From the NCBI RefSeq assembly GCF_024223415.1, contig NZ_CP100502.1: a stretch of DNA of 64,000 bases; one strand, given 5' to 3'. Shown piece by piece: positions 10,488 to 55,035 of this stretch (its first letter is position 1; the number at the start of each line of letters is the position of its first letter). The stretch is from Escherichia coli (GTDB lineage Bacteria > Pseudomonadota > Gammaproteobacteria > Enterobacterales > Enterobacteriaceae). The translations under genes and the position numbers were made by a program. Under the pieces are notes generated by a model. The model searched no databases and was not told where the DNA came from. It saw nothing but the letters and a program-made list of their open reading frames with translations.

Positions 10488-11208
<721 letters not shown>

Positions 11209-34139: not shown

Positions 34140-34440
34140 GATTCGTCACCGCTTTCCTTTCCTCTCAGTTTCACCATTTCATTCCTTTTCCCTTAACCTG
34201 AACCATGATGTCCACGATGTTTTTATATTGCATTTATGTATCACATATAACCTTCATAATGTTTTTGTATCTATGATTTCCTCTGGTCTTAAAGTTGTGT
34301 GTACAATGTACATGCAATTTATCGTGTTTTTATGTTACATTTGTCCTTTCAAAAAGACCGTTTTTTCATTATAATTGAATATACATTGCATGTATGAAGC
34401 ATGTTTGTTTTTTCTATTTGTTTATGAGCAACGGAGACTG
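34140..34440. promoter_or_regulatory. parC-like centromere/promoter region upstream of parM
   Basis: AT-rich with reiterated short motifs. Confidence 0.4.
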
Positions 34441-34443
34441 GTT

Positions 34444-37830: not shown

Positions 37831-38184
37831 TATTCTAATAACTGAATCCGCACACAGTCAAATGTCATTGTTGTGACTAAAAAACGCTCAATTCTCTGAG
37901 TGTGTGGCTGTATGCCTGCTGTGGGCTGCTGTGTCCAGCTTATCCACAGCATTTTGTGCACGGTTCTGTGGACAAAATACCTGGTTACCCAGGCCGTGCC
38001 GGCACGTTAACCGGGCTGCATCCGATGCAAGTGTGTCGCTGTCGCCGGCCTCCTCACCCGGTCACGTTTCGTCGTTCCTCCTCCACGCGCTGCGGCTTCG
38101 GGGCCGCACCTGCATTCGTATGCGGTCGCCCGGTAACAGGTGCGGCACGGCCTGATGGAGGCCGCATGTGAGAGGAGAATTCCC

Positions 38185-39111
38185 ATGCCAAACTGGTGCT
38201 CGAATCGTATGTATTTTTCTGGTGAACCGGCACAGATCGCTGAGATTAAACGACTGGCCAGCGGTGCAGTTACACCGCTTTATCGCCGCGCCACAAATGA
38301 AGGTATTCAGCTGTTTCTGGCCGGAAGTGCCGGACTTCTGCAGATCACTGAAAATATCCGCTCTGAACAGTGCCCCGGAGTGACGGCTGCCGGACGTGGT
38401 GCTGTATCGACGGAAAATATCGCGTTCACCCGCTGGCTGACACACCTGCAGAACGGTGTACTGCTGGATGAGCAAAACTGCCTGATGCTGCATGAACTCT
38501 GGCTGCAGAGCGGTACTGGACAGCGTCGCTGGGAAGGATTACCGGATGATGTCAGGGAAACCATCACTGTGCATTTCACCGCAAAAAGAGGTGACTGGTG
38601 TGACATCTGGGGTAGCGAGGATGTATCGGTGTGGTGGAACCGTCTGTGTGACAACGTAGTGCCGGAAAAAACCATGCCGTTTGACCTGCTGACGGTTCTG
38701 CCGACCCGCCTGGATGTTGAAGTGAATGGCTTTAATGGTGGTGTTCTGAACGGTGTTCCTTCTGCATATCACTGGTATACAGAACGGTATGGCGTGAAGT
38801 GGCCTTGTGGGTATGACCTGAATATCAGTAGTCAGGGAGACAACTGCATTCAGGTGGATTTCGACACGCCGTGGTGTCAGCCGGAAAGCGACGTTGTTGC
38901 AGCATTAAGCCGCCGTTTCGGCTGCACGCTGGAGCACTGGTACGCCGAACAGGGCTGCAATTTCTGTGGCTGGCAGTTGTATGAGCGCGGAGAGCTCGTT
39001 GATGTGCTCTGGGGGGAACTGGAATGGTCTTCCCCGACAGATGACGATGAGCTGCCGGAAGTCACCGGACCTGCGTGGATAGTCGACAAGGTGGCGCATT
39101 ACGGGGGATGA
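38185..39111 (+). CDS. Hypothetical leading-region protein
   Basis: 308 aa from MPNWCSNRMYF with SD GAGGAG. Confidence 0.55.
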   Translation: MPNWCSNRMYFSGEPAQIAEIKRLASGAVTPLYRRATNEGIQLFLAGSAGLLQITENIRSEQCPGVTAAGRGAVSTENIAFTRWLTHLQNGVLLDEQNCLMLHELWLQSGTGQRRWEGLPDDVRETITVHFTAKRGDWCDIWGSEDVSVWWNRLCDNVVPEKTMPFDLLTVLPTRLDVEVNGFNGGVLNGVPSAYHWYTERYGVKWPCGYDLNISSQGDNCIQVDFDTPWCQPESDVVAALSRRFGCTLEHWYAEQGCNFCGWQLYERGELVDVLWGELEWSSPTDDDELPEVTGPAWIVDKVAHYGG

Positions 39112-39495
39112 AGTATGACGGAGACGGGCGGGCAACCGCCCGTTTCTTTTCCGACAAAGGATGTCGCCGTGCTCCTCTGTTTACTGCGCCGGCTGATGCG
39201 GCGCGGCATAAACGCTGCCTGTGGTCAGTGTCCCGCGTCCGGCGGGCACGGGACGGGCGCTTTTACCGCTCCCGGCTGGCGTCGGTGACAGTGTACGCCA
39301 GCCTGTCGCCCTTTTCTGATGAACGCCCTTCAAGCCGCTTTCGCGGCATATTCTCGCCGTCAAAAAGACGACGGCTGCGATATTCCACGGTCGGCCTGAC
39401 CCGTTACCGGACGCGGTGAACAGCCCACAGGCAGCGGGGAACGGGCACCACAGGGGTGCCCTCCCGGTGCCCTCTGAGAAAGAAGGAGTGTTGTT

Positions 39496-40179
39496 ATGTC
39501 CCGTTTTGTCCTCGGTAACTGCATTGATGTTATGGCGCGTATTCCTGATAACGGCATTGATTTCATACTGACTGACCCGCCATACCTCGTCGGTTTTCGT
39601 GACCGACAGGGGCGTACCATCGCCGGCGATAAAACCGATGAATGGCTGCAACCAGCCTGTAATGAAATGTATCGCGTACTCAAAAAAGATGCGCTGATGG
39701 TCAGCTTCTACGGCTGGAACCGCGTCGATCGCTTTATGGCCGCCTGGAAAAATGCGGGATTCAGTGTGGTTGGGCACCTGGTCTTCACCAAAAACTACAC
39801 ATCGAAGGCCGCATATGTGGGTTATCGCCACGAATGCGCCTACGTTCTGGCAAAAGGCCGTCCGGCGCTGCCTCAGAAGCCATTACCCGACGTGCTGGGC
39901 TGGAAATATTCAGGCAATCGTCATCACCCGACGGAAAAGCCTGTTACCAGCCTGCAACCACTGATTGAGAGCTTCACACATCCGAACGCGATTGTGCTGG
40001 ACCCGTTTGCAGGCAGCGGCTCAACCTGCGTGGCTGCCCTTCAGTCCGGACGCCGGTATATCGGTATCGAGCTGCTTGAGCAGTATCACCGTGCCGGACA
40101 GCAACGTCTGGCTGCCGTACAGCGGGCCATGCAGCAGGGGGCCGCAAATGATGACTGGTTTATGCCGGAGGCTGCGTAA
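39496..40179 (+). CDS. Orphan DNA methyltransferase (N6-adenine/N4-cytosine type, DPPY motif)
   Basis: 227-aa ORF; DPPY motif and FAGSGST AdoMet-binding motif. Confidence 0.85.
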   Translation: MSRFVLGNCIDVMARIPDNGIDFILTDPPYLVGFRDRQGRTIAGDKTDEWLQPACNEMYRVLKKDALMVSFYGWNRVDRFMAAWKNAGFSVVGHLVFTKNYTSKAAYVGYRHECAYVLAKGRPALPQKPLPDVLGWKYSGNRHHPTEKPVTSLQPLIESFTHPNAIVLDPFAGSGSTCVAALQSGRRYIGIELLEQYHRAGQQRLAAVQRAMQQGAANDDWFMPEAA

Positions 40180-40401
40180 ATGAACTATGCCGGACATGAA
40201 AAACTTCGCGCCGAAGTGGCGGAGGTGGCCAATGCCATGTGCGACCTGCGTACAACCATGAATGAGATGGAGCGGCGGTACAGCTTTAATGCTGACACCC
40301 TGCCGGAACGTCTGGTGCGTCAGACGTTGTTTCGCGCAAACCGCCTCCTGATGGAGGCATATACCGAAATTCTGGAACTGGATTCCTGCTTCAAAGATTG
40401 A
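40180..40401 (+). CDS. Hypothetical small protein
   Basis: 73-aa ORF starting at the methylase stop. Confidence 0.45.
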   Translation: MNYAGHEKLRAEVAEVANAMCDLRTTMNEMERRYSFNADTLPERLVRQTLFRANRLLMEAYTEILELDSCFKD

Positions 40402-40412
40402 GGGGAGAGAGT

Positions 40413-40847
40413 ATGTACGGAACATGCGAAATACTCTGCCGGGAGCTGGCAGCAAAGTATCCGGCAGACACGCCACTGATGCTGGTTGTCTGGTCCCCTG
40501 AAGAGATTCAGGCCCTCGCTGACGGAATGGATATTTCCCTGTCCGATCATGAAATCAGGACCGTCCTGGCGCGCCTGGAGGACATCCCGGAAGACCAGCG
40601 GATTGAGTCCGGTATTTCTTCCGGCGTGGCGATGGAGATTATCAGCAACGTGAGAGAAAACCGCCAGGTGACCGTCCCTGCTGAACTGCTGGCGTCCCTG
40701 ATTCAGACCGCTGAACAGGCACTGTGGAAACGTGAATGGGCCGCCCGTGATAACGGCCTTGCCGTCCCGGAATGTGTTACCCGCCGTCAGGCAGTGATTA
40801 ATCAGGCCCGCACCCTGCTGAAAAACAACACACACGAAAACAACTGA
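40413..40847 (+). CDS. Hypothetical leading-region protein
   Basis: 144 aa from MYGTCEIL with SD. Confidence 0.5.
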
Positions 40848-40897
40848 TGTTATCGCCGCCTGCCCTGCGGGCGGCGATACAGGGAGAACGCTTAATC

Positions 40898-41668
40898 ATG
40901 AACAAAACGCTGAATGCACTGGTTTGTCGTCACGCCCGTAACCTGCTGCTGGCGCAGGGCTGGCCGGAAGAGACGGATGTTGACCAGCGAAATCCGAACT
41001 ATCCGGGCTGGATCAGCATTTACGTGCGGCTGGATGCGCCCCGGCTGGCGACGTTACTTATCAACCGTCACGGCGGCGTACTGCCGCCGCTCCTGGCCTC
41101 CGCCATTCAGAGACTGACCGGAACCGGGGCGGAACTGGTACTGTCCGGCAGTCAGTGGCAGTCGCTGCCGGTACTTCCGGCAGACGGAACGCAGGTGTCT
41201 TTCCCGTATGCCGGAGAATGGCTGACCGAAGACGAAATCAGGGCTGTTCTTGATGCGGTGCACGATGCGGTACGAAGCATCTGTTACCAGGTGGCAGAAG
41301 ATGCGCGGCGTATCCGTGCGGCGCTGACCACCACCGGTCAGACGTTGCTGACCCGCCAGACGCGCCGCTTTCGCCTGGTCGTGAAGGAAAGCGATCACCC
41401 CTGCTGGCTCGATGAAGATGACGAAAACCTGCCCGTGGTGCTCGATGCCATCGTGAACCGGGGAGCACGTTTTTCGTCGGTGGAAATGTACCTGGTCAGC
41501 GATTGTATTGAGCATATCCTGTCCTGTGGGCTGGCCTGCGATGTGCTGCGTATACCCGATGAACCGCCCCGCCGCTGGTTTGACCGTGGTGTTCTGCGGG
41601 AGGTGGTCCGGGAAGCCCGGACCGAAATCCGCAGCATGGCGGATGCCCTGGCAAAAATCCGGAAATGA
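40898..41668 (+). CDS. Hypothetical leading-region protein
   Basis: 256 aa from [10 protein letters not shown] with SD AGGGAGAA. Confidence 0.5.
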
Positions 41669-41726
41669 TGACACTGGCGGGGTAAATCCCCGCCTTTTTC
41701 CTGCCGGTCCCCGGACAGAGCACAAA

Positions 41727-42058
41727 GGAAGTCGCCGCCGGCTCCGCTTTACCCGGCCATGCGGGGCATGGCCTTGTGGGTTTTCAGTTATGTGGCCACC
41801 GTGTCGTGTGCGGGCTGTGCCGTGCCTCCATCTTAGCCGGGCTGGCAGGGATGCAAGGGTACGCTTCGCCGCTGCGGTCACCCGGTCCCTCCTTCCCGTC
41901 TGCCGTGATTTTCCGGTCGTTCACCCGCTCAGATTTCGCGGTCTCACCCTCCAACTCCCGCCAGCCGTGTGCGTCAGGCTGCGGCTTCCCTTGCGCCCTG
42001 TGCATCCCCGCCTTATCGCCCGGCTTTTATGGAGGCACGGCACCGCCCGGTGTCGCGG
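41727..42058. repeat. Leading-region GC-rich repeat, family B copy 1 (Frpo/ssi-like single-strand promoter candidate)
   Basis: About 330 bp nearly identical to 48711-49040; directly upstream of klcA/ardB-like gene. Confidence 0.7.
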
Positions 42059-42085
42059 AATATGTGAACAACGGAGGAATACATC

Positions 42086-42511
42086 ATGCAATATGCGAAA
42101 CCTGTCACTCTGAATGTTGAAGAGTGCGACCGTCTGTTTTTTCTGCCTTACCTGTTTGGCCAGGATTTTCTGTATGTCGAAGCGTCTGTGTACGCGCTGG
42201 CGAAAAAAATGATGCCGGAATATGAAGGCGGATTCTGGCACTTCATCCGCCTGCCGGACGGTGGCGGCTACATGATGCCGGATGGCGACCGTTTCCACAT
42301 AGTGAACGGTGCAAACTGGTTTGACCGTACCGTGAGTGCTGATGCCTGCGGCATCATTCTGACTTCCCTTGTGATTAACCGCCAGTTGTGGCTGTACCAC
42401 GACAGCGGTGATGCAGGACTGACCCAGCTTTACCGGATGCGCGATGCGCAGTTGTGGCGTCACATCGAATTTCACCCTGAATGCAACGCGATTTACGCGG
42501 CTCTGGACTGA
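42086..42511 (+). CDS. klcA: Antirestriction protein, KlcA/ArdB family
   Basis: 141 aa; [17 protein letters not shown] and C-terminal NAIYAALD motifs recalled from KlcA. Confidence 0.75.
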
Positions 42512-42557
42512 TTAACGGACGGGGCGGCAATGCCGCCCCTGTAAAGGAGACGAGAAA

Positions 42558-42980
42558 ATGTACTGTACTGTTAAAGAAATTATCCGCGAAGTGCTGGATA
42601 CAGACGTGCCGGACAGTGAATGCGTTTTTGCCGTGGTGCTGACCCGTGGGGATGTGCGTCACATAGCCCAGGACTGGAACCTGTCAGACGATGAGCTGGA
42701 AACCGTCATGCAGCGGCTGGACGATGCCTTTGAGCATGGTGCGGATGTCAGCGTTGTTCACGACGTTGTTCGTGAACTGATGGAAGAAAAGCGCGCCAGC
42801 CGTCATGTGACAGTCCCGGCGATGATGCTGGAAAAAGTGATGGCGCTGGCAGGCAGTGAAATGAAGCGCCTGTATGCCGTCGGAAGTGAGAACGGGGGCG
42901 ACGGTGACGCATTCGTCAGGGAGGAACGCGAAGCAATGGACGTTGTGTTACAGGCGCTGGACGGGGAGACGATGTCATGA
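42558..42980 (+). CDS. Hypothetical acidic leading-region protein
   Basis: 140-aa ORF with SD AAGGAGA. Confidence 0.5.
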   Translation: MYCTVKEIIREVLDTDVPDSECVFAVVLTRGDVRHIAQDWNLSDDELETVMQRLDDAFEHGADVSVVHDVVRELMEEKRASRHVTVPAMMLEKVMALAGSEMKRLYAVGSENGGDGDAFVREEREAMDVVLQALDGETMS

Positions 42981-43168
42981 ATATCAGCACAGAAACCCGC
43001 GAAATTCTGCGTAATTACAGGGCCGTGATTAATGCGCGGCGTCGTGAAATGGGGCAGAAACCGCTCACCACCGCGCAGATTGTTGATGAAATCTGCGATT
43101 TTGTGGCGAATCAGCAGGCGGTTTTCCTGGGCGGTCACTACATCTTACAGGGCAGCAGAAACAGGTGA
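42977..43168 (+). CDS. Hypothetical small protein
   Basis: 63-aa ORF overlapping upstream stop. Confidence 0.4.
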   Translation: MNISTETREILRNYRAVINARRREMGQKPLTTAQIVDEICDFVANQQAVFLGGHYILQGSRNR

Positions 43169-43404
43169 TACAGGGGCAGGCGGTGGAGGCCGCCTGTCAG
43201 CCCGCGCGAAAACCCCTGGCAGGCTGACGCCTGCCGGAAGGGAAGCGGGCCACGCTGGCGCGTCGCCCGTTACCCTTCCCGTCTGTGATGTGTCTGACTC
43301 AGGAGTGTTTCTTTCTTATGTTATGGAACTGTTCCTGATGTTGTTGTTCCTTTATCTGCTGCTCTGATTCTGACTACTGCAGTGTTGTTCTGTCTGCCGG
43401 GCGC

Positions 43405-43920
43405 ACCTTCGGCTCCCGGCTGCCTGGCGGCATCCGGTCGTCAGGCCCGACTCCGACAGGCAGCTGCTGGCGCACCCGCCAGTCTCCGCCGAACCCGCTG
43501 GCGCGGTTTCGGGCTGTCGCTACGGTCCGATGCGTGAAAACCCGGGCTTGCAGCGACCGTTCCGGTCGCGCCGCCTCTGTCGCGCCGTGACCTGCGCTCC
43601 CTGCACACCTGACGGTGTGTGAGGAAACTGCGCCTGATGGCGCAGCAGTCCTCCCTCCTGCCGCCACCTCTGCGGCCTGTTTCCCGCTGTGGACTTTCCG
43701 GGGGGCAGACGTAACCCCCTCCCGTTCCATCTGTCCAGGGTGAGATGCACCGGCCACAAAATTTTTAGCCATGAACCCGGCAAAAAATTTTGCGTCCGCC
43801 CCCGGACAGCTGTCCCGTGAGGCGGTAAACGGGCCCCCATCGGAAAGGTCCACTGCGGGGAGAAACCCCTGTGAAGTGGACGGCAGGAGGAGCTTTCGCT
43901 CCTCTGAAGGGGCACATGAA
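43405..43920. repeat. Leading-region GC-rich repeat, family A copy 1 (Frpo/ssi-like)
   Basis: About 515 bp highly similar to 49739-50255 and, in part, 52815-53150; directly upstream of ssb. Confidence 0.7.
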
Positions 43921-43973
43921 CGTCCCGTCTCCGGTATCCGGTTTATCTCACATCTTTCAGTCAGGAGGTTCTT

Positions 43974-44501
43974 ATGAGTGCACGTGGTATCAACAAGGTC
44001 ATCCTCGTCGGGCGTCTGGGCAATGATCCGGAGGTCCGTTACATCCCCAACGGTGGCGCAGTGGCAAACCTGCAGGTGGCCACGTCAGAAAGCTGGCGCG
44101 ACAAACAGACGGGGGAGATGCGGGAGCAGACGGAATGGCACCGTGTTGTGCTGTTCGGCAAGCTCGCGGAAGTGGCAGGTGAATATCTGCGCAAGGGCGC
44201 GCAGGTCTACATCGAGGGGCAACTCCGTACCCGTAGCTGGGACGACAACGGCATCACCCGCTACATCACTGAAATTCTTGTTAAGACCACGGGCACCATG
44301 CAGATGCTGGGGAGTGCACCACAGCAGAACGCTCAGGCGCAACCGAAGCCTCAGCAGAATGGGCAGCCACAGAGTGCTGACGCGACGAAAAAAGGTGGCG
44401 CGAAAACGAAAGGCCGTGGACGTAAGGCCGCGCAGCCCGAGCCTCAGCCGCAAACGCCGGAGGGGGAGGATTACGGGTTTTCAGACGACATCCCGTTCTG
44501 A
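43974..44501 (+). CDS. ssb: Plasmid single-stranded DNA-binding protein
   Basis: 175 aa; OB-fold N-terminus, Gln/Pro-rich linker, acidic tail DDIPF. Confidence 0.95.
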
Positions 44502-44516
44502 TCGGGCTGACTGTGA

Positions 44517-44792
<276 letters not shown>

Positions 44793-44850
44793 GAGAGGTG
44801 CCGGACGCGCGAACGTCCGGCAGGACATAAGCAATTATAAGGGGATGATT

Positions 44851-46809
44851 ATGCCTGTAACGAAGTGTGAACCAGAAACCACCCGCAAAGCAAGCCGTAA
44901 ATCTGCAAAAACGCAGGAAACTGCCCTGTCTGCCCTGCTGGCGCAGACGGAGGAAGTGAGCGTGCCGCTGGCCTCACTGATTAAATCACCGCTGAATGTG
45001 CGCACGGTGCCGTATTCTGTGGAGTCCGTCAGCGAACTGGCTGGGTCCATTAAGGGCGTTGGCCTGTTGCAGAATCTGGTCGTGCATACCCTGCCTGGTG
45101 ACCGTTACGGTGTCGCCGCAGGTGGTCGCCGACTGGCTGCACTCAACATGCTGGCAGAGCGCAACATCCTTCCGGCTGACTGGCCTGTCCGTGTGAAGGT
45201 CATCCCGCAGGAACTGGCGACTGCCGCATCGATGACCGAGAACGGTCATCGTCGGGATATGCACCCTGCCGAACAGATTGCCGGATTCCGCGCATTGGCG
45301 CAGGAAGGCAAAACACCTGCACAGACTGGCGACCTGCTGGGCTATTCACCCCGCCACGTTCAGCGAATGCTGAAACTGGCAGACCTTGCGCCTGTCATCC
45401 TCGATGCGCTGGCAGAGGACCGCATCACCACCGAGCACTGTCAGGCGCTGGCGCTGGAGAGCGACACCGCGCGTCAGGTGCAGGTGTTTGAAGCGGCCTG
45501 CCAGTCAGGATGGGGCGGTAAACCGGATGTGCGGGTTATCCGCAACCTGATTACGGAAAGTGAAGTGGCAGTGAAGGACAACACTAAATTCCGCTTTGTG
45601 GGGGCTGATGCCTTCTCGCCAGACGAATTGCGCACCGATTTGTTCAGCGATGACGGGGACGGTTATGTCGACCGCGTGGCGCTCGATGCCGCCCTGCTGG
45701 AAAAACTCCAGGCTGTTGCAGAGTTCCTTCGGGAAGCCGAAGGCTGGGAATGGTGCGCCGGGCGCATGGAGCCTGTCGGTGAGTGCCGTGAGGATGCCGG
45801 AACATACCGCTGTCTGCCGGAGCCGGAAGCGGTGCTGACGGAGGCGGAAGACGAACGCCTGAACGAACTGATGACGCGTTACGACGCGCTGGAAAACCAG
45901 TGTGAGGAATCCGACCTGCTGGAAGCAGAAATGAAGCTGATGCGCTGCATGGCGAAGGTCAGAGCGTGGACGCCGGAGATACGTGCCGGAAGCGGTGTGG
46001 TGGTGTCCTGGCGTTATGGCAACGTATGTGTCCAGCGTGGTGTGCAGTTGCGCAGTGAAGATGACGCGACTGACGACGCTGACCGCACGGAACAGGTGCA
46101 GGAGAAAGCGTCAGTGGAGGAAATCAGCCTGCCGTTGCTGACGAAAATGTCCTCAGAGCGCACGCTGGCAGTCCAGGCGGCACTCATGCAGCAGCCGGAC
46201 AAATCTCTGGCACTGCTGGCATGGACGCTCTGCCTGAATGTGTTTGGCAGCGGGGCGTACAGTAAACCAGCACAAATCAGCCTGGAATGTGAACATTATT
46301 CGCTGACCAGCGATGCGCCATCGGGGAAGGAAGGTGCCGCATTCATGGCGCTGATGGCAGAAAAATCCCGTCTTGCAGCCCTGCTGCCGGAGGGATGGTC
46401 ACGGGACATGACGACATTCCTGTCCCTCAGTCAGGAGGTGCTGTTATCCCTGCTCAGTTTCTGCACCGCATGCAGCCTTAACGGTGTCCAGACCCGTGAG
46501 TGTGGTCACACGTCACGCAGTCCGCTTGACTCGCTGGAAAGCGCTATCGGATTCCACATGCGCGACTGGTGGCAGCCGACAAAAGCAAACTTCTTCGGAC
46601 ACCTGAAAAAGCCGCAGATTATCGCAGCCCTGAATGAGGCCGGACTGTCCGGTGCCGCACGGGACGCGGAGAAGATGAAGAAAGGTGATGCGGCTGAACA
46701 TGCAGAGCACCATATGAAAGACAACCGCTGGGTTCCAGGCTGGATGTGTGCACCACATCCACAGACAGATGCCACTGAACGCACCGATAACCTGGCTGAT
46801 GCCGCCTGA
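44851..46809 (+). CDS. ParB-like nuclease-domain protein of the leading region
   Basis: 652 aa from MPVTKCEP; N-terminal ParB/Srx-like region. Confidence 0.75.
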   Translation: MPVTKCEPETTRKASRKSAKTQETALSALLAQTEEVSVPLASLIKSPLNVRTVPYSVESVSELAGSIKGVGLLQNLVVHTLPGDRYGVAAGGRRLAALNMLAERNILPADWPVRVKVIPQELATAASMTENGHRRDMHPAEQIAGFRALAQEGKTPAQTGDLLGYSPRHVQRMLKLADLAPVILDALAEDRITTEHCQALALESDTARQVQVFEAACQSGWGGKPDVRVIRNLITESEVAVKDNTKFRFVGADAFSPDELRTDLFSDDGDGYVDRVALDAALLEKLQAVAEFLREAEGWEWCAGRMEPVGECREDAGTYRCLPEPEAVLTEAEDERLNELMTRYDALENQCEESDLLEAEMKLMRCMAKVRAWTPEIRAGSGVVVSWRYGNVCVQRGVQLRSEDDATDDADRTEQVQEKASVEEISLPLLTKMSSERTLAVQAALMQQPDKSLALLAWTLCLNVFGSGAYSKPAQISLECEHYSLTSDAPSGKEGAAFMALMAEKSRLAALLPEGWSRDMTTFLSLSQEVLLSLLSFCTACSLNGVQTRECGHTSRSPLDSLESAIGFHMRDWWQPTKANFFGHLKKPQIIAALNEAGLSGAARDAEKMKKGDAAEHAEHHMKDNRWVPGWMCAPHPQTDATERTDNLADAA

Positions 46810-46863
46810 TGAACAACCACACCGCCCCGCCGGAGACGGGGCGGCAGCAAGGGAGATACCGTG

Positions 46864-47298
46864 ATGAAAACTGAACTGACCCTGAATGCCCTGCAGTCCA
46901 TGAACGCACAGGAATATGAAGATATCCGTGCTGCGGGAAGCGATATGCGCCGTAATCTCACTCACGAGGTGATGCGTGAAGTGGACGCACCGGCTAACTG
47001 GATGATGAATGGCGAGTATGGCAGTGAGTTCGGGGGCTTTTTCCCCGTCCAGGTTCGTTTCACGCCAGCCCACGAACGTTTCCACCTGGCATTATGTTCG
47101 CCGGGAGACGTCTCTCAGCTCTGGATGCTGGTTCTGGTGAATTGTGGTGGACAGCCTTTCGCCGTCGTTCAGGTGCAACATATCTTCACGCCTGTCGCTA
47201 TCAGTCACACGCTGGCGCTTGCCGCGACACTTGATGCGCAGGGGTACAGTGTTAACGACATCATCCATATCCTGATGGCAGAAGGAGGTCAGGCATGA
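46864..47298 (+). CDS. psiB: Plasmid SOS inhibition protein PsiB
   Basis: 144 aa [32 protein letters not shown]. Confidence 0.9.
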
Positions 47299-48014
47299 GC
47301 GCACGTTCACGGGCACTGATCCCCCTCAGCGCAGAGCAACAGGCCGCCATGCAGGCTGTGGCTGTCACCGAACAACGTCGTCGTCAGGGACGCACACTTT
47401 CAGCATGGCCTTATGCCAGCGCTTTCTTTCGCTGCCTGAATGGCAGTCGCCGGATTTCGCTGACCGATCTCCGCTTTTTTGCTCCTGCGCTGACGAAGGA
47501 GGAATTTCATGGCAACCGTCTCCTGTGGCTGGCTGCCGTGGATAAACTGATTGAAAGTTTTGGTGAAGTCTGTGTTCTTCCCCTGCCATCCGATGCGGGG
47601 CATCGTCTGTTCCCGTCCGTTCCTTTTCGTGAAGGTGAGCGGCGTCGTCAGAAAACCACGCTGACAGAGCAGAAATACAGCCGCCAGCGGGAACGTGAGG
47701 CAGAACGACGGGAACTGGAATACCAGACATGTTTTGCTCAGGCGCAGATTGACCTTGCGTTTCATACTCCCGCCACGGTCGGAAGCTGGTTGTCCCGCTG
47801 GTCTGGTGTTGTTGAGGAGCATGATCTGGAAACGATTTTCTGGGGGTGGTGCGGGCGTTTTCCATCACTGTCATCATTTGACCGGTTTTTCTGGCAGGAG
47901 GAACCACTCTGGCGGCTGATTTTTGAAGCCGGTGAGGCCGGTCGTGGTGCACCGGTACAGGTACGTGCACTTGAGCAGTGGATGATCCCGAACAAGCTGG
48001 AGAACGCAATATGA
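47295..48014 (+). CDS. psiA: PsiA
   Basis: 239-aa ORF overlapping psiB stop. Confidence 0.85.
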
Positions 48015-48607
48015 TGAAATCAGACGAACAATATCAGGTTCCCGTGTGGATGCGACCTCTGTTGCCGTTGCTCTGCAATACCGGTGGTAATGATCCGGAG
48101 GAACTGCTGAATGATACAGAAACCACCGCCAGTGCGAATATTGTCCGTTATGTACTGATAGTTGCAGTGCGGTCGCAGATTGATCTGCTGCAGCTACTGT
48201 ACAGGAAAGGACTGTTGCGCACAGAGATACCAGGTGGCTTTTCACCGGAAGAAGCGCAGGAACTCCTGGATAATCTGGTGCGCAGCCATATCAGCAAGGC
48301 GTTGTCGGGTGAGCGAATGGCAGCCCGTGACAGAAATGCCGATCTGACCTGGATTCGCCAGCAACTGGTCGATGCCGCCTGGTTTGTCCGTGCCACACTG
48401 GAAGCGCATGGGATGGGCGTCGGAAATGAGAGTCCCTCTGCTCCGCCGGAGACAATGCCGGACATACAGACACGGGAACTGGTTATGTTGATCAAGCGAC
48501 TGGCATCATCGCTGAAAGCGGTGAAACCCGACAGTAGCGTGGTGCGTGAAGCGCAGGACTGGCTGTGCGACAGAAAACTTGTGGATATCACAGATATTCT
48601 CCGGTGA
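48011..48607 (+). CDS. Hypothetical leading-region protein
   Basis: 198-aa ORF overlapping psiA stop. Confidence 0.5.
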   Translation: MMKSDEQYQVPVWMRPLLPLLCNTGGNDPEELLNDTETTASANIVRYVLIVAVRSQIDLLQLLYRKGLLRTEIPGGFSPEEAQELLDNLVRSHISKALSGERMAARDRNADLTWIRQQLVDAAWFVRATLEAHGMGVGNESPSAPPETMPDIQTRELVMLIKRLASSLKAVKPDSSVVREAQDWLCDRKLVDITDILR

Positions 48608-48710
48608 ACCAGACATGTATATTTTACGCAGGGACACGCCGATCATGATCGTTTCATATCAGGGGTGGTCTGGAGGTCATGCGGCGTGTCCTCTGCACTC
48701 GCCGGAATAA

Positions 48711-49040
48711 GGAAGTCGCCGGCGGCTCCGCTTTTACCCGGCCATGCGGGGCATGGCCTTGTGGGTTTTCAGCTCTGTGGCCTCAGCGTCGTGTGCGGGC
48801 TGTGCCGTGCCTCCATCTTAGCCGGGCTGGCAGGGATGCAAGGGTACGCTTCGCCGCTGCGGTCACCCGGTCCCTCCTTCCCGTCTGCCGTGATTTTCCG
48901 GTCGTTCACCCGCTCAGATTTCGCGGTCTCACCCTCCAACTCCCGCCAGCCGTGTGCGTCAGGCTGCGGCTTCCCTTGCGCCCTGTGCATCCCCGCCTTA
49001 TCGCCCGGCTTTTATGGAGGCACGGCACCGCCCGGTGTCG
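48711..49040. repeat. Leading-region repeat, family B copy 2 (Frpo/ssi-like)
   Basis: Nearly identical to 41727-42058; directly upstream of ardA. Confidence 0.7.
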
Positions 49041-49069
49041 CAGAACATGTGACTATGGAGGATTCGGGA

Positions 49070-49570
49070 ATGTCTGTTGTTGCACCTGCTGTATACGTTG
49101 GAACCTGGCACAAATACAACTGTGGAAGCATCGCTGGCCGCTGGTTTGACCTGGCCACGTTTGATGATGAACGCGACTTTTTCGCCGCCTGCCGCTCTCT
49201 TCACCAGGATGAAGCCGATCCTGAACTGATGTTTCAGGATTATGAGGGATTCCCGGGGAATATGGCCTCAGAATGCCATATCAACTGGGCCTATGTTGAA
49301 GGCTTCCGCCAGGCGCGGGATGAAGGCTGCGAAGAGGCTTATCGTCTCTGGGTGGATGATACCGGTGAGACGGATTTTGACACCTTCCGCGATGCCTGGT
49401 GGGGCGAGGCTGACAGTGAGGAGGCTTTTGCGGTTGAGTTCGCCAGTGATACCGGCCTGCTGGCTGACGTGCCGGAGACGGTGGCGCTCTATTTTGACTA
49501 TGAGGCGTATGCGCGGGATTTATTCCTGGACTCCTTCACCTTTATTGACGGTCATGTGTTCCGTCGGTGA
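49070..49570 (+). CDS. ardA: Antirestriction protein ArdA (DNA mimic)
   Basis: 166-aa highly acidic protein [28 protein letters not shown]. Confidence 0.9.
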
Positions 49571-49738
49571 TTTACTCCCCCGCTCCGGCGGGGGTATGGC
49601 CTGCCAGGCCGCCGGAAAACCCTGGCAGGCTTACGCCTGCCTGAAATGCAGGAGGGCCGCGCCTGCGGCGCTGCCCTTCCTGCCCGTCATGGTGTGAGGC
49701 ATTTTTCTGTTATGTCGTTTCTGTTGTTCTGATTTCCG

Positions 49739-50255
49739 GAGGCGGGGACACCTTCGGCTCCCGGCTGCCTGGCGGCATCCGGTCGTCAGGCCCGACTCCG
49801 ACAGGCAGCTGCTGGCGCACCCGCCAGTCTCCGCCGAACCCGCTGGCGCGGTTTCGGGCTGCCGCTACGGTCCGATGTCTGAAAAACCAGGCTTGCAGCG
49901 ACCGTTCCGGTCGCGCCGCCCCTGTCGCGCCGGAAACGGCGCTCCCTGCACACCTTACGGTGTGTAAGGCAACTGCGCCTGATGGCGCAGTCAACCCTTC
50001 CGCCGCCACCCCTGCGGCCTGTTTCCCGCTGTGGACTTTCCGGGGGCTGGAGTAACCACATCCCGTTTCAGCAGTCCAGGGGAAGATATACCGTCCACAA
50101 AATTTTTAGCCATAAACCCGGCAAAAAATTTTGCGTCCGCCCCCGGACAGCTGCCCCGTGACGTGGTGACGGACGCCCCATCGGAAAGGTCCACTGCGGG
50201 GAGAAACCCCGAAGAAGTGGACGGCAGAAGGGGCTTTCGCCCCTCCGGGGAGCAA
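49739..50255. repeat. Leading-region repeat, family A copy 2 (Frpo/ssi-like)
   Basis: Highly similar to 43405-43920. Confidence 0.7.
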
Positions 50256-50298
50256 CCGGTCGGCCCGGCGACCTGATTCAGCAGAAGGAGATGTTTTC

Positions 50299-50733
50299 AT
50301 GACAGTCAGCAGCACGATTTCCGTTTTTTGCCGCGACGGGGTGTTCCGTACCGTTTACTGCCACCTGCACGGGGAGCCGACCTGGAACGGTCGCATCCTG
50401 CATACTCACTATGCCACCGGTCAGCAGGCCGAAGCCCTGGTTGAACACGGTGATATCCGTTGCCTCGGTCCCCGTTGTGACAAACCCGCCGGGCATACGC
50501 TTCAGAACCCGGTGGACGGTGTGACGGCTTATTACGGACGTGACAGTGGTTTCCGGATGGACAGTGAGGCGCGTGAGTACCGTTCTTTCAGGGAGGCTAT
50601 TGCCACTGAAAGCACTGAAGAGGTGCGCTTCCATTATGTGTTCATCGACGGCTACTGGAAGGTGATGTACCGCACGCCGGAAGGCTGGAAGATGAAAGCG
50701 CTCGCGCTGGCACTGCGTCGCTGTCCGAAATGA
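50299..50733 (+). CDS. Hypothetical protein directly downstream of a family A repeat
   Basis: 144-aa ORF with SD AGGAGA. Confidence 0.55.
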   Translation: MTVSSTISVFCRDGVFRTVYCHLHGEPTWNGRILHTHYATGQQAEALVEHGDIRCLGPRCDKPAGHTLQNPVDGVTAYYGRDSGFRMDSEAREYRSFREAIATESTEEVRFHYVFIDGYWKVMYRTPEGWKMKALALALRRCPK

Positions 50734-50824
50734 AAAAAAGGCAGGGCGATAAACCCTGCCTCTCTCCGCCGTTACTTCCCCGCCAGGAAGAGCGGCAGTC
50801 ATCAACAACATAAGGAGTAATATT

Positions 50825-51091
50825 GTGAGACCATCAATTATCTTCGCAACCGCCGAGTATGTAAAGCGTCTGCGTGAAGAGTGCCTGCGGGAGAATAAAC
50901 CCCTGCACCGCCATACCCGCTTCAGACGTCAGGAGCTGGCACAGGATGAGATTAACCCGGACGTCCTGGCGATGAGCGGCCATATCGCCAGACGCTGCAG
51001 TGAGCAGAAGCGGGTGCGTATCCCCGCTATGAAAGTCAGCGAATGGGGCCACCTGCTCCGCGCGCTTGAAATTGAGCGGGTCTGCCACTGA
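50825..51091 (+). CDS. Hypothetical small basic protein
   Basis: 88-aa ORF, GTG start, SD AAGGAG. Confidence 0.45.
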   Translation: MRPSIIFATAEYVKRLREECLRENKPLHRHTRFRRQELAQDEINPDVLAMSGHIARRCSEQKRVRIPAMKVSEWGHLLRALEIERVCH

Positions 51092-51155
51092 TTAACCCTT
51101 GCCGTCTGCCTGTGCAGGCGGCAGGATACGTTCAGACATCTCACCAGGAGGAACC

Positions 51156-52097
51156 GTGAGTAAGAAGAAAAACACCACAACGCCCACGCCGCATGATGCC
51201 GCGTTCCGGTCGTTCCTGGCGAATCCCGACGTCGCCAGAGATTTTCTGGAACTGCATCTTCCTGCGGAGTACCGGCAGTTGTGCGACCTGTCCACGCTGA
51301 AGCTGGAACCCGCCACCTTTGTTGAGCCGGACCTGCATCAGTACGCCAGCGATATCCTCTGGAGCGTGAAAACCACCGGGGGTGAAGATGGTTATGTTTA
51401 TACGCTCATCGAGCACCAGAGCACCGAAAATCTGTACATGCCTTTTCGCATGTTACGCTACAGTGTGGCGGCGATGCAGAGACATCTGGAGCAGCACAAA
51501 ACGTTGCCACTGGTCATTCCGGTGCTGTTCTATCACGGTGAGCGCAGCCCGTACCCGTACAGCATGAACTGGCTGGACTGTTTTGAGAATCCGGCGCTTG
51601 CGGCTAAAATATACACAAAGCCGTTTCCGCTGGTTGATATCACTGTCGTTGATGACAATGAAATCATGAACCATCGCCGGATGGCCGCACTGACGCTGCT
51701 GATGAAGCATATCCGTCAGCGGGATATGCTGATGTGTCTGGACAACCTGGTCAGAGCACTGCAGGACATCCAGGATGAAGAGCAGATTACAGTTCTTTTC
51801 AACTATCTGCTTAATGGCAGCGAACATGTAACGGTTGAATTTTTGCAGACGCTGGCGCAGCGACTGCCGCAGCACGAGGACAGCATTATGACACTGGCAG
51901 AACGTCTTAAGCAGGAAGGTATCCAGCAAGGTATCCAGCAGGGTATCCAGCAGGGTATCCAGCAGGGAGTTCAGCAGGGGGCGCTTCAAAAAGCACGGGA
52001 AATCGCCCGGGAGCTCCGGAACGCGGGAATGCCGGCAGCACAAATCTGTCAGCTGACCGGACTTTCTGAAGCTGAACTGAAGAACATCACTCACTGA
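51156..52097 (+). CDS. Rpn-family (YhgA-like) recombination-promoting nuclease
   Basis: 313 aa from GTG; PD-(D/E)xK-type N-terminal region, C-terminal QQGIQQG repeat. Confidence 0.75.
   Translation: MSKKKNTTTPTPHDAAFRSFLANPDVARDFLELHLPAEYRQLCDLSTLKLEPATFVEPDLHQYASDILWSVKTTGGEDGYVYTLIEHQSTENLYMPFRMLRYSVAAMQRHLEQHKTLPLVIPVLFYHGERSPYPYSMNWLDCFENPALAAKIYTKPFPLVDITVVDDNEIMNHRRMAALTLLMKHIRQRDMLMCLDNLVRALQDIQDEEQITVLFNYLLNGSEHVTVEFLQTLAQRLPQHEDSIMTLAERLKQEGIQQGIQQGIQQGIQQGVQQGALQKAREIARELRNAGMPAAQICQLTGLSEAELKNITH
51918..51977 (+). repeat. Five tandem 12-bp repeats (GGTATCCAGCAG-like) encoding (QQGI)n within the Rpn gene
   Basis: Read directly. Confidence 0.85.
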
Positions 52098-52158
52098 TGA
52101 GAGCCAAAAGGCCCGGCAAAATGCCGGGCCTTTTGCCAGCAGGAGCAGAGAAAACAGT

Positions 52159-52329
52159 ATGACGATTGCAGAACGTCTTATACAGAAAGGTTTTGAAAAA
52201 GGTGCTCTTGAAGTGGCGCGGGAAATAGCCTGCCGGCTTCGGGATATGGGCTGGACGCCGGAACGGATTCAGGAGGCCACGGGACTTTCCGGTGAAGAAC
52301 TGAAAAAACTGTTTCCTGATGAGCAGTAG
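52159..52329 (+). CDS. Small ORF resembling the C-terminal domain of the adjacent Rpn protein (RpnS-like)
   Basis: 56-aa MTIAERLIQKGFEKGALEVAREIACRLRDMGWTPERIQEATGLSGEELKKLFPDEQ; parallels Rpn C-terminus; SD AGGAGCAGAG. Confidence 0.5.
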   Translation: MTIAERLIQKGFEKGALEVAREIACRLRDMGWTPERIQEATGLSGEELKKLFPDEQ

Positions 52330-52359
52330 CCTGGCATTCTGCCAGGCTGTGAACCACGC

Positions 52360-52611
52360 TCACACATCCTCTGCCGTTTCCCCCAGTTCATTTTCCAGAC
52401 GCCTGATGATATCTGCCTTGCGCATCCCCTGCATGTGAGGCAGCAGGTCACGGACTGAAAGTGCCTGGGTGGTCCTCCAGACGGTGACATCCACCTGTTC
52501 CGCATTTTCCCAGGCGTGCCATGTTCTCTGTGTCACGCCAAATTCTCTGGCCGCTTTTTCGCGTGACCAGAGCATGCTTTTTCGCCAGATTCGCAGTTCC
52601 CAGCCGGTCAT
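52360..52611 (-). CDS. Small helix-turn-helix regulator (XRE-like)
   Basis: 83-aa ORF with HTH-like segment. Confidence 0.5.
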   Translation of the reverse strand: MTGWELRIWRKSMLWSREKAAREFGVTQRTWHAWENAEQVDVTVWRTTQALSVRDLLPHMQGMRKADIIRRLENELGETAEDV

Positions 52612-52814
52612 AAAACACCTTTGAAAAAGTGAAAAAACTTCACTTTATTTTATCACCATAACCACCAAATCAGCGCGAAAAATAAGTGTGAAAAAGTGAA
52701 GGAATTTCACTTTTTTTGATTGTAGGTGTCGTGCTGTTTTCTCTGTTTTCACCTGTGCGGGAGTGGTGTGCCAGTGACCACCACATGCCATTGTTGCGCC
52801 GTCGTTTTTCTTCA

Positions 52815-53150
52815 GTCGCGCCGGATGCGGCGCTCCCTGCACACCTTACGGTGTGTAAGGCCACTGCGCCTGATGGCGCAGCTGTCTCTGCCTGTCTGCC
52901 GCCGCACTGCGGCCTGTTCTCCGCAGATGGACTTTCCGGGGGTACATACACGACCACATCCCGTTTCAGTCGTCCAGGGGAGAGATGTACCAGCCACAAA
53001 ACTTTTTGCCGCAGGCGTCAAAAACTTTTGCGTCTGCCCCCGGACAACTGCCCCGTGACGTGGTGAGCGTCCCCCGTCGGAAAGGTCCACTGCGGGGAAA
53101 TCCCCGAAGACCCGGACGGCAGAAGGAGCTTCGCTCCTCCGGGAAATGAC
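52815..53150. repeat. Leading-region repeat, family A copy 3 (partial)
   Basis: Aligns with the distal two-thirds of the family A repeats. Confidence 0.65.
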
Positions 53151-53187
53151 CTGGCTGACCCGGCAGTCGTGACGATGAGGAGACAAT

Positions 53188-54039
53188 GTGATGAATCAGA
53201 CTTTACCCACTGCTGACCTGAATACTGCCGGCACGACAGATGTTATTCCGTCTGTGGCCATCGACCGCATCATCGCGCAGCGTAACGAAGGTATTGCACT
53301 GTTCATGCAGGCGATGGAATGCCTGGCGACAGCGCGCAGGATTCTGCTTGATGCGTCAGGTGATATTTTTCTTTACGGTTTTGAAGACTGCGTGACCGAC
53401 TCCGTTCGGTGCATGGATAAACCGGAAGAAGCGAAAAGGAATATCACCCGTCTTGCCGACCGGAAAATCTGGGACCGCCTGATGACGGATACGGGGATGT
53501 ACACCTTCATGAGTTCATGTCAGCGTGATGAGTGGAACAGCCAGCTGATGAGCGACACCTGTCCTGAAATCACCCTGGACAATGTACTGGCAACTTTTCG
53601 CCATCTGAATGCCAGTAAGATGCAGACATTTGAACAGGGACTGATTGATGTCTACCGGAAATTGTCATGGGATTACAGAACCAATAATCCCTGCCGTCTG
53701 GGCAAGAGAATCATTATTGAAAACCTGCTGTACCGCTGGAGTAACGGGCGTGTTACGCTGGACTGCAGCGGACGGGAGGCACTGGATGACCTGGTACGTC
53801 CGTTTTATCTGCTGGAGGGGCGCAACGTTCCTGACTTCCGGAGCAGCATCGGGGCGCAGTACGGTGAATTTATCGGGAACGGCGACAATGTCGGTAAGCT
53901 GTTAGAAGGGGAATATTTTACGGTGCGTGGCTACCAGAAAGGGACCGTACACATTGTCTTTAAGCGTCCTGACCTTGTTGAAAAACTGAATGATATTATT
54001 GCACGGCATTATCCTGGTTCATTGCCGCCACGAGTCTGA
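53188..54039 (+). CDS. Hypothetical protein directly downstream of the partial family A repeat
   Basis: 283-aa ORF with SD GAGGAG. Confidence 0.55.
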   Translation: MMNQTLPTADLNTAGTTDVIPSVAIDRIIAQRNEGIALFMQAMECLATARRILLDASGDIFLYGFEDCVTDSVRCMDKPEEAKRNITRLADRKIWDRLMTDTGMYTFMSSCQRDEWNSQLMSDTCPEITLDNVLATFRHLNASKMQTFEQGLIDVYRKLSWDYRTNNPCRLGKRIIIENLLYRWSNGRVTLDCSGREALDDLVRPFYLLEGRNVPDFRSSIGAQYGEFIGNGDNVGKLLEGEYFTVRGYQKGTVHIVFKRPDLVEKLNDIIARHYPGSLPPRV

Positions 54040-54123
54040 TTAAACAGAAAAGCCCTGGTATTTATGCCGGGGCTTTTTTTCTGTAATCATCATAATATCA
54101 GAACATGATGTGACATTGTCACA

Positions 54124-54465
54124 TCAATTGTTGTTCATATCGATGCCATCTTTCCTGGCTGAATCTGTCTTTTTAGATGCTGTTTTAGAGGAAGAACGGC
54201 GGGATGGCTTTTTCGATTCTGCTTCCCGAATAATGTCACGAAGTGCCTTCTCTCCTACTTCATACCCTGCATTTTTGAGCGTATCACGAACATCTGCCAG
54301 TGTATAACCCTTTGTCCTTACCAGAACAATAATGTCATCACGAATGGCATCAAGAAAATCACGCAATGTTTTCCGTTGAGCGGTGAGATCTGGCAATTCC
54401 GATAAAGCAGCTTTTGCCAGCTGGATGTCATCATCTGAGTAAAATTTTTTAGAAGCCATTGGCAC
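54124..54465 (-). CDS. Hypothetical protein transcribed divergently from nikA next to oriT
   Basis: 113-aa ORF with Lys/Ser-rich C-terminal tail. Confidence 0.45.
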   Translation of the reverse strand: MPMASKKFYSDDDIQLAKAALSELPDLTAQRKTLRDFLDAIRDDIIVLVRTKGYTLADVRDTLKNAGYEVGEKALRDIIREAESKKPSRRSSSKTASKKTDSARKDGIDMNNN

Positions 54466-54559
54466 TTTCTCTCCGTTTCATGTTGAAGTCTGATTTTATC
54501 ATCAAAAACTGACTCCTGGCAGGGCTGCGCCCTGCCTCTGCCGTCTGCATAAGACTATG

Positions 54560-54692
54560 ATGCACAAAAATAACAGGCTATAATGGCCTGAAAAACGGGA
54601 CAGGATGTGCAATTGTAATACCGTCACACGCGACGCTATTACAATTGCCATCTGGTCAGGGCTTCGCCCCGACACCCCGTAAGGAGCCTGAA
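54560..54692. other. Putative origin of transfer (oriT)
   Basis: Immediately upstream of nikA; inverted repeat GCAATTGTAATAC ... TATTACAATTGC around 54609-54658. Confidence 0.5.
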
Positions 54693-55025: not shown

Positions 55026-55035
55026 GGATTCTCCG

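Follow-up and report, generated by a model that had tools for sequence, protein, structure and literature searches.

The open reading frame at positions 44851-46809, on the plus strand of the 64,000-nucleotide stretch of Escherichia coli DNA analyzed here (the window), is confirmed as a gene, and sequence comparison identifies it as the IncI orthologue of F YfjB/HerB, also called YubM, ParB2 in pED208 and YfhA in IncI1/IncI-gamma plasmids (ColIb-P9, pESBL, p1ESBL). Its product is an already described and widespread plasmid protein, which probably works like HerB of F, namely, as a CTP-binding, ParB-like clamp of the host chromosome that acts transiently after plasmid entry. It is not a partition ParB, and its assignment as a nuclease is not supported.

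The gene, its operon, and its relatives

The carrier is an IncI-gamma/K1 conjugative plasmid. The gene, herB, lies in its leading region, downstream of a predicted single-stranded DNA (ssDNA) promoter and oriented toward oriT, as in the HerB family, with nikA/nikB and an oriT-type inverted repeat located about 7.8 kb downstream. The earlier note on this DNA had placed the gene between ssb and psiB, which is correct, with a DUF905 gene also in between, giving the operon order ssb, DUF905, herB, psiB, psiA:

43398-43904, minus strand: predicted class-1 single-strand promoter (ssi3/Frpo2-type) upstream of ssb; the minus strand is the transferred template, with a predicted long hairpin
43974-44501, plus strand: ssb, first gene of the operon (Pfam SSB, E = 7.6e-37)
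44559-44792, plus strand: DUF905 gene (yfjA in F, ykfF in IncI), 77 aa, directly 5' of herB, a PGAP CDS (Pfam DUF905, E = 1.4e-34)
44851-46809, plus strand: herB/yfhA/yfjB/yubM/parB2, encoding the 652-aa ParB-like leading-region protein (ORF and PGAP CDS)
46864-47298, plus strand: psiB, directly 3' of herB (Pfam PsiB, E = 8.7e-57)
47295-48014, plus strand: psiA (Pfam PsiA, E = 1.4e-41)

The start codon at 44851 is preferred because a Shine-Dalgarno-like AAGGGG lies 7 nt 5' of this ATG, because PGAP made the same choice (CDS WP_021265661.1 in the sequence-identical plasmid pSE08-00436-2), and because the studied F protein is 652 aa long. An alternative in-frame ATG at 44761, which gives the 682-aa form used by some databases and overlaps the DUF905 gene, was dismissed on these grounds. 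Antisense ORFs across herB, which carry no annotation in the record of the identical plasmid, were regarded as fortuitous products of the GC-rich DNA. No Rfam family was found within 38000-56000.

The alignment with F YfjB is gapless and full length, with 606 of 652 residues identical (93%), and the 46 substitutions cluster within the first 23 residues, which are disordered, and within D3, the third of four domains. The dN/dS ratio against the F copy is 0.16 for the whole gene and stays under 0.2 in every one of the domains D1-D4, which indicates a real, constrained gene. The family definition in the HerB preprint calls for coverage of at least 80% of each of D1-D4, and all four are covered in the IncI copy; the CTP motifs (Box II with R94, Box III with E130) and the helix-turn-helix residues R168, R172, and K175 are the same as in F HerB, and all residues mutated in the preprint are kept. 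At least 5000 PLSDB plasmids carry the gene, as do 3402 of the 5426 complete E. coli genomes (63%). Full-length, four-domain relatives comprise more than 100 cluster representatives at 27-57% identity, 72 of which were aligned; distant homologues have no adjacent ParA and stand beside leading-region or antirestriction genes, including ArdC. A phage origin was dismissed, since the phage collection yielded only five distant matches, the best with 30% identity over 98% of the query on an unannotated fecal contig.

The minus strand of the putative promoter has a predicted ssDNA fold of -110 kcal/mol (z = -10.5), and the region can be partly aligned with the F region 5' of ssb; further copies of this repeat family occur at 49743-50245 and, partially, at 52812-53075. 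On the plus strand, no sigma-70-like site was found from ssb to psiA, where the sigma-70/terminator scan did not exceed shuffled expectation. The claim that the gene belongs to an early-expressed leading region agrees with this Frpo/ssi-type promoter and with published expression: production of F YfjB is early, transient after transfer, Frpo2-dependent, and undetectable in donors (PMC9849209), and the leading-region operons of an IncI plasmid (pESBL), including the ssb-psiB region, are induced (PMC12672017).

Domain architecture and relation to known CTP switches

The domain mapping called for in the earlier note gave a ParB module followed by a large C-terminal part:

44920-45258, plus strand: D1, ParB N-terminal CTP-binding domain (aa 24-136); Pfam ParB_N; resembles ParB, Noc, and KorB with bound CTP/CDP in PDB searches by sequence and by fold
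45259-45555, plus strand: D2, helix-turn-helix domain; Pfam HTH_ParB, model pLDDT above 90
45562-46101, plus strand: D3, mixed alpha/beta domain without known relatives (aa 238-417)
46102-46758, plus strand: D4, helical domain (aa 418-636); no Pfam match, high-confidence model except loops

Pfam placed ParB_N at residues 43-131 (29.6 bits, cut-off of 26.3) and HTH_ParB at residues 136-222 (32.7 bits, cut-off of 22.6) and gave no match for residues 238-652 (about 415 aa). The ParB/Srx-like N terminus and the size far beyond that of a partition ParB, both pointed out previously, are borne out. The AlphaFold2 monomer model (pLDDT of 88.4) has D1-D4 boundaries equal to those of the HerB preprint. 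No solved fold matched the C-terminal half in the PDB fold search, and a search of the PDB by sequence and fold for a solved HerB structure returned only ParB, Noc, and KorB, each matching D1-D2 alone. Box II of D1 reads G91-G-R-R94-L-A-A97 and Box III E130-N131, and G91, R94, E130, and N131 are invariant among the 72 aligned relatives, as are W627 and P629 in D4. Substitutions at the equivalents of R168, R172, and K175 in D2 of F HerB strongly reduced focus formation, and D4 of F HerB forms a domain-swapped dimer core and confers nucleoid association, according to cryo-EM and truncations (PMC13370423).

The closest system is F HerB itself, which shares the sequence, the four domains, the place in a ssb-DUF905-X-psiB-psiA operon, and the type of ssDNA promoter. 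The backbones differ, being MOBP/MPF_I in IncI and MOBF/MPF_F in F, and so do the deletion phenotypes, with a host-specific increase in transfer for IncI and a higher acquisition cost with unchanged transfer for F. Canonical ParB (Spo0J; Thermus thermophilus 1vz0, Myxococcus xanthus 7bnk, Caulobacter crescentus 6t1f) has in common with the IncI protein the CTP fold plus helix-turn-helix and the GxxR and ENxxR motifs (phmmer to 1vz0, E = 7.8e-17; Foldseek to canonical ParB, E of about 1e-10); in contrast, the IncI protein lacks a ParA partner, parS, and the Q/E dyad, its C-terminal half is larger and unlike that of ParB, and the reported target of the HerB family is the host chromosome rather than its own replicon. 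KorB (RK2), VirB (Shigella), and BisD (ICEclc), a described class of CTP switches (PMC12704722), likewise combine a ParB-fold CTP domain with a helix-turn-helix, regulate genes, and reside on mobile elements. They lack D3-D4, however, and load at defined sites to regulate their own element, whereas HerB has no known motif and its reported targets are host loci. The KorB structures 8qa8 and 8qa9 match D1-D2, but phmmer to KorB is marginal (E = 0.11), and the protein does not qualify as a KorB repressor. The best NCBIfam matches, the PRTRC-system ParB (TIGR03734) and the 'plasmid partitioning protein' PRK13832, are similarly long (555-578 aa) with an N-terminal ParB module, yet the score for TIGR03734 was 69.3 bits against a cut-off of 278.6, over profile positions 6-170 of 555 only, which places the protein outside that family, and PRK13832 gave 39 bits against a cut-off of 640, with only the first 170 or so profile positions aligned.

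One feature of the D1 pocket goes beyond what has been reported for HerB. As judged from alignment with the wild-type, Q52A, and E93A chains of M. xanthus ParB, N49 corresponds to Q52 and G92 to E93, so that the canonical dyad of partition ParB, formed by Q (QPR motif) and E (GERR), is replaced in the IncI protein; none of the 72 sampled family members has both dyad residues together. In M. xanthus ParB, loss of Q52 or E93 abolishes CTP hydrolysis, locks the closed DNA-bound state, and allows parS-free closure.

Published function and alternative readings

According to the earlier note, the role of the protein was not established, a view overtaken by a July 2026 preprint that renames F YfjB as HerB and assigns it a function (PMC13370423) and by deletion phenotypes described for IncI (PMC10104558), F, and pED208. 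The combination that the note had named as fatal to its proposal, namely, a deletion without phenotype and a protein without catalytic residues, was not encountered, as phenotypes have been published and the protein retains its nucleotide-binding residues. The preprint reports a crystal structure with CTPγS and Mg2+ and a new dimerizing C-terminal domain; in the crystal, D1D2 with CTPγS was monomeric, in which it differs from closed ParB clamps. In ChIP-seq, F HerB gave peaks on the chromosome, with no parS site, and no signal on F, and in real F transconjugants 20 ChIP loci were found, 4 of them in prophages and others at regulatory RNAs or stress loci. Host transcription was reprogrammed and the cost of plasmid acquisition lowered; ΔherB in F had a small effect on this cost (approximately 10%, in a laboratory strain) and caused a competition defect, while conjugation frequency and plasmid positioning were as before (PMC13370423). 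This functional model comes from one unreviewed preprint, in which most omics data derive from ectopic expression (PMC13370423). On the other hand, a 2023 study found that knockout of IncI yfhA raised transfer in one host strain and had no effect in another and that loss-of-function mutations in yfhA were repeatedly selected in one host (PMC10104558); these results fit poorly with a simple model in which the protein helps establishment. The pED208 homologue, ParB2, is itself translocated through the T4SS, and its deletion left the SOS response and transfer unchanged.

Three other readings of the protein have to be weighed against the HerB-like clamp. Under the PGAP name 'ParB/RepB/Spo0J family partition protein', carried by the records that hold herB, it would be a partition ParB that binds a plasmid centromere together with ParA. 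ParB_N and HTH_ParB are indeed present, but NCBIfam TIGR00180 (parB_part) scored a marginal 57.8 bits, just under its cut-off of 58.45, and the C-terminal 415 aa bear no relation to the dimerization domains of ParB. No parS-type site, repeated palindrome, or operator-like repeat was detected near herB in a short inverted-repeat scan, and the operon has an upstream ssDNA promoter rather than a double-stranded DNA promoter consensus. The lack of a ParA partner had been recorded before and stands: no ParA gene adjoins herB, and two separate partition modules of the plasmid lie 9-12 kb upstream:

32925-33635: ParA-like ATPase, a partition module with its own small partner, 11 kb from herB
34375-35833: ParM/StbA plus StbB, the second partition module

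Together with the undetectable level of the F orthologue in donors, the unaffected plasmid positioning, and the missing ChIP signal on F, by which a partition role is already largely refuted for F, this leaves the partition reading very improbable. The ParB/Srx fold includes some nucleases, and the domain was formerly called 'ParB-like nuclease domain' in Pfam. Under the nuclease label of the earlier note, the protein would be an enzyme cutting recipient DNA, for example, for anti-defense or DNA processing, as could be pictured for a gene surrounded by ardA, klcA, and a DNA methylase. The label is not supported, since the D1 pocket carries the invariant NTP-binding residues of the CTP-binding ParB clade, the structures that match best are those of ParB, Noc, and KorB with bound CTP or CDP, no nuclease-specific profile matched, and PADLOC gave no significant match. 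The F orthologue holds CTPγS-Mg2+ in the crystal, and HerB-producing cells show an intact nucleoid with foci (PMC13370423). The text of the preprint makes no mention of a nuclease, so that this activity is disfavored rather than excluded; we attach hardly any weight to it.

It is also conceivable, though in our judgment unlikely, that the main role is one of conflict, in which the protein would act as a KorB/VirB-like, CTP-dependent silencer or anti-silencer at particular loci of the host, a prophage, or a plasmid, or in anti-defense, and the broad changes in the transcriptome would be secondary to overexpression. Such a role could accommodate several observations: (i) herB shares its location and its expression with anti-restriction and anti-SOS genes, and distant homologues adjoin ArdC; (ii) the effect of IncI knockouts is strain specific, with loss selected in one host; (iii) the 20 transconjugant ChIP loci include prophages, regulatory RNAs, and stress loci; (iv) the pED208 homologue travels through the T4SS; and (v) D1-D2 are structurally KorB-like. 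Against it, deletion in pED208 affected neither the SOS response nor transfer, no countered defense system is known and PADLOC returned nothing significant, and in a laboratory strain ΔherB in F measurably raises the acquisition cost and impairs competition.

A working model for the IncI protein

For the preferred reading, that of a HerB-like clamp, we propose the following course of events. During conjugation, the minus strand of the leading region would enter the recipient as ssDNA, and the ssi3/Frpo2-type hairpin 5' of ssb would serve as a single-strand promoter for transient transcription of ssb-DUF905-herB-psiB-psiA. The product would dimerize through D4 and expose two flexible arms, each made up of D1 (CTP) and D2 (helix-turn-helix), as shown for F and as suggested here by residue conservation. 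In its CTP-bound form it would, by analogy with F, bind not the plasmid but the chromosome of the recipient, assembling at numerous positions that show no parS-like motif, and host transcription and metabolism may be altered so that the transient cost of acquisition is lowered, as the single F preprint would predict for the IncI copy.

The literature on HerB reports no specific DNA target, loading mechanism, or CTP hydrolysis rate. Given the dyad replacement, we tentatively suggest that proteins of the HerB family may be CTP switches that by nature hydrolyze CTP poorly, a possibility that we rate below even chances. If true, it would account for the lack of a parS motif, the broad ChIP peaks, and the foci lasting for hours, and HerB would load itself onto host DNA and stay clamped there for long periods. 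Since some strains show increased transfer when the function is lost, the IncI clamp may possibly be a host-dependent liability.

To conclude, herB is among the commonest plasmid genes of Enterobacteriaceae and is still annotated throughout as a 'partition protein'; recent work points to action on the recipient chromosome in the first hours after conjugation, which would make the protein relevant to the establishment of resistance plasmids.

Identity and conservation of the herB product

The 652-aa protein encoded between ssb and psiB can be assigned, by all of the sequence-level evidence, to the HerB/YfjB/YfhA family, and as such it is an already known protein. The earlier note had called its role not established, a statement that is out of date given that the F-plasmid homologue YfjB has been studied and renamed HerB (bioRxiv preprint, 7 July 2026, PMC13370423). 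Alignment with the F protein encoded between DUF905 and psiB, which is YfjB (UniRef name YubM), gave 606 identical residues out of 652 (93%) with zero gaps; the two genes share 92.5% nucleotide identity with a dN/dS of 0.16, and each of the four domains, D1 to D4, is constrained relative to F (dN/dS 0.09 to 0.17). The pED208 homologue has been named ParB2, and the IncI gene, part of the "ssi3 operon," has been named yfhA or "parB-like" (PMC10104558 and its preprint). At 90 to 100% nucleotide identity, herB is present in at least 5000 PLSDB plasmids; it is carried by 3402 of 5426 complete E. coli genomes, where 4755 of the 4817 matched places are plasmid-borne.

Pfam recognized ParB_N (residues 43-131) and HTH_ParB (residues 136-222), while no Pfam family matched residues 238-652. 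The AlphaFold2 model of the full protein (mean pLDDT 88.4) was divided as follows.

Segments of the herB product in the AlphaFold2 model
Before D1: disordered N-terminus
About residues 24-136: D1
Residues 137-235: D2
Residues 238-413: D3
Residues 414-425: low-confidence linker
Residues 427-636: D4, helical

Foldseek searches against the PDB matched D1-D2 only, to CTP/CDP-bound ParB (M. xanthus, B. subtilis, and C. crescentus), Noc, Spo0J, and KorB, and returned nothing for the rest of the model, in agreement with phmmer against the PDB. The ParB-like N-terminal architecture recognized in the earlier note is borne out by both domain matches and fold, whereas the "nuclease" label attached to it found no support in the present analysis and derives solely from an old domain name.

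Among 1.84 billion cluster representatives searched, 1184 matched at E <= 1e-30, more than 100 of them full-length (600 to 770 aa, 27 to 57% identity, entire query covered), and residues G91, R94, E130, N131, Q209, D263, W627, and P629 are invariant across a 72-sequence family alignment. Two distant homologues occur in comparable surroundings, one (39% identity) adjoining DUF932, SLT, and TraM in a leading region of the F type and the other (31% identity) near ArdC; no adjacent ParA was found at either. Matches also occur among phage sequences: phrog_7783, a PHROG of unknown function, matches the full-length protein (E = 4.8e-255), a homologue with 30% identity (98% query coverage) is encoded at 9357-11288 of MT836029.1, a "Bacteriophage sp." contig of 13.7 kb from human faeces, and cyanophage matches are confined to the N-terminal ~57%.

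The leading-region locus and its single-strand promoters

The locus order is ssb, DUF905, herB, psiB, psiA; about 7.8 kb downstream of herB come nikA/nikB and an oriT-type inverted repeat of 17 bp (54609-54648), which place herB in the leading region, oriented toward oriT.

Features of the herB locus and of the partition modules
32925-33635: ParA-like ATPase, with a 102-aa partner
34375-35424: ParM/StbA
35417-35833: StbB
43398-43904 (507 nt): class-1 ssi/Frpo element, predicted to fold on the - strand, just upstream of ssb
43974-44501: ssb, upstream of the DUF905 gene
44559-44792: DUF905 gene, between ssb and herB
44851-46809, +: herB ORF, ATG at 44851, 652 aa
46864-47298: psiB, downstream of herB
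47295-48014: psiA, after psiB

The ORF thus stands as the earlier note had placed it, with DUF905 as a further neighbour. An alternative in-frame ATG at 44761 would give a 682-aa form, which is used in many database entries and in published IncI knockout and complementation constructs; its extension (44761-44850) shares 32 nt with the 3' end of the DUF905 gene. We favour 44851, since a Shine-Dalgarno-like AAGGGG lies 7 nt 5' of it. PGAP chose the same start in pSE08-00436-2, a conjugative Salmonella plasmid (IncI-gamma/K1, MOBP, MPF_I) whose record is 100% identical. Perfect GC-rich hairpins occupy the short gaps between herB and psiB (46820-46846) and between ssb and DUF905 (about 44517-44545), with no + strand T-run 3' of either, and could be mRNA-stabilising, attenuating, or ssDNA structures.

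Since the genes lie on the + strand and are directed toward oriT, the - strand must be the transferred template. As ssDNA, the - strand of 43398-43904 is predicted to fold into a long hairpin (-110 kcal/mol, z = -10.5), and its core can be aligned with the sequence that precedes ssb in F; the element is the class-1 ssDNA promoter (ssi or Frpo). No sigma-70 consensus was found on the + strand from ssb through psiA, and no Rfam family matched within 38000-56000. The early expression proposed in the earlier note agrees with this upstream hairpin and with published work: YfjB-sfGFP is visible in transconjugants before ss-to-ds conversion and absent from donors, and early leading-protein production needs Frpo1/Frpo2, yfjB lying downstream of Frpo2 (PMC9849209); in IncI1 pESBL, strong induction within 15 min was seen for six leading-region operons, that of ssb and psiB among them, with transcription start sites mapping to ssDNA promoters (PMC12672017).

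Copies of the 507-nt element at 49743-50245 (repeat) and 52812-53075 (partial), upstream of ORF 50299-50733 and further toward oriT, are consistent with ssi2 and ssi1 of IncI plasmids. A 300-nt direct repeat (41748-42047 and 48733-49032, 98% identical) has its first copy just upstream of a klcA-like antirestriction gene (42086-42511), while its second copy precedes ardA (49070-49570). The - strand of the repeat has an ssDNA fold of z = -6.3, and the repeat is the counterpart of the ssDNA promoters that were termed "class 2" in IncI1 pESBL. Within the leading region, flanked by ssDNA-promoter copies, lies a gene for an Rpn-family recombination-promoting nuclease/putative transposase with a QQGI tandem peptide repeat (51099-52097). 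A gene annotated "DNA methylase" (39496-40179) at the region's distal end, identically annotated in F at the same relative position, may be the M.EcoGIX-type methyltransferase of pESBL. Unrelated to herB are near-perfect palindromes at 19518-19549 and 20069-20110, ~550 bp apart in a lower-GC stretch, with the common motif TTAATGCTAATGTA.

The probable HerB mechanism and a host-conflict alternative

F HerB is reported to be a homodimer. A 2.6-Å D1D2 crystal structure shows CTPγS-Mg2+ held by Box I, Box II (G91-A97), and Box III (E130), and in 3.6-Å cryo-EM the D4 domains form a domain-swapped dimer that makes up a V-shaped core (PMC13370423). In transconjugants it forms nucleoid-associated foci that need D4, the helix-turn-helix residues R168/R172/K175, R94, and E130; ChIP-seq gave 156 chromosomal peaks when HerB was expressed ectopically and 20 peaks in real transconjugants, with neither a consensus motif nor signal on F, and ~870 host genes were altered in expression, with metabolic consequences (PMC13370423). 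Deletion of herB left conjugation frequency unchanged and raised acquisition cost by ~10%, and the deletion plasmid was outcompeted in serial conjugation-competition (PMC13370423). The window protein is identical to F HerB at every residue named in that study, and the mechanism is therefore assigned to it by orthology. What was observed here for the window copy itself is its identity, its domain structure and motifs, and the promoter upstream of its operon; by extension from the F protein, it would bind DNA and reprogram the host.

A host-conflict or anti-defence-type role seems improbable to us beside this assignment, and we keep it under consideration because of three lines of evidence: (i) IncI-gamma ESBL plasmids repeatedly acquired loss-of-function mutations in yfhA during experimental evolution, and plasmids with yfhA knocked out transferred at a higher rate in one clinical host, with no such increase in another (PMC10104558 and its preprint); (ii) transfer and the SOS response were unaffected by deletion of pED208 parB2, and the T4SS translocated Cre-ParB2; (iii) the HerB functional model is founded largely on ectopic expression.

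ParB-type relatives and the CTP hydrolysis dyad

The plasmid's true partition genes form two side-by-side partition/stability modules (32925-35833) away from herB, which has no adjacent ParA, an orphan status that the earlier note had seen correctly. Identity as a partition ParB was rejected on a TIGR00180 score marginally under the cut-off, the lack of ParA and parS, a different C-terminal half, and a missing catalytic dyad; PRTRC ParB was rejected because the score, 69 bits, falls short of the cut-off of 279. The closest functional resemblance is to the regulatory ParB-fold CTP switches KorB, VirB, and BisD, unlike which HerB would target host DNA, with no known site.

In M. xanthus ParB, CTP hydrolysis is catalysed by Q52 and E93; when either is mutated, ParB still binds CTP but is locked in its closed state on DNA, and its ring can close without parS (bioRxiv 10.1101/2021.05.05.442810). 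Alignment with three M. xanthus chains (wild type 7bnk, Q52A 7bnr, and E93A 7o0n) placed N49 and G92 of the window protein at these positions; the N and G pair occurs in 45 of 72 family members and the Q and E pair in none of the 72. PMC13370423 reports no CTP hydrolysis measurement for HerB, and the replaced dyad is not discussed in the literature consulted. The substitution suggests that HerB family members may be clamps that close by themselves and hydrolyse CTP slowly, although the CTPγS crystal form of F HerB is monomeric (PMC13370423), a counterpoint to easy clamp closure. A clamp of this kind would be in keeping with the breadth of the ChIP peaks, the persistence of the foci, and the absence of a parS motif.
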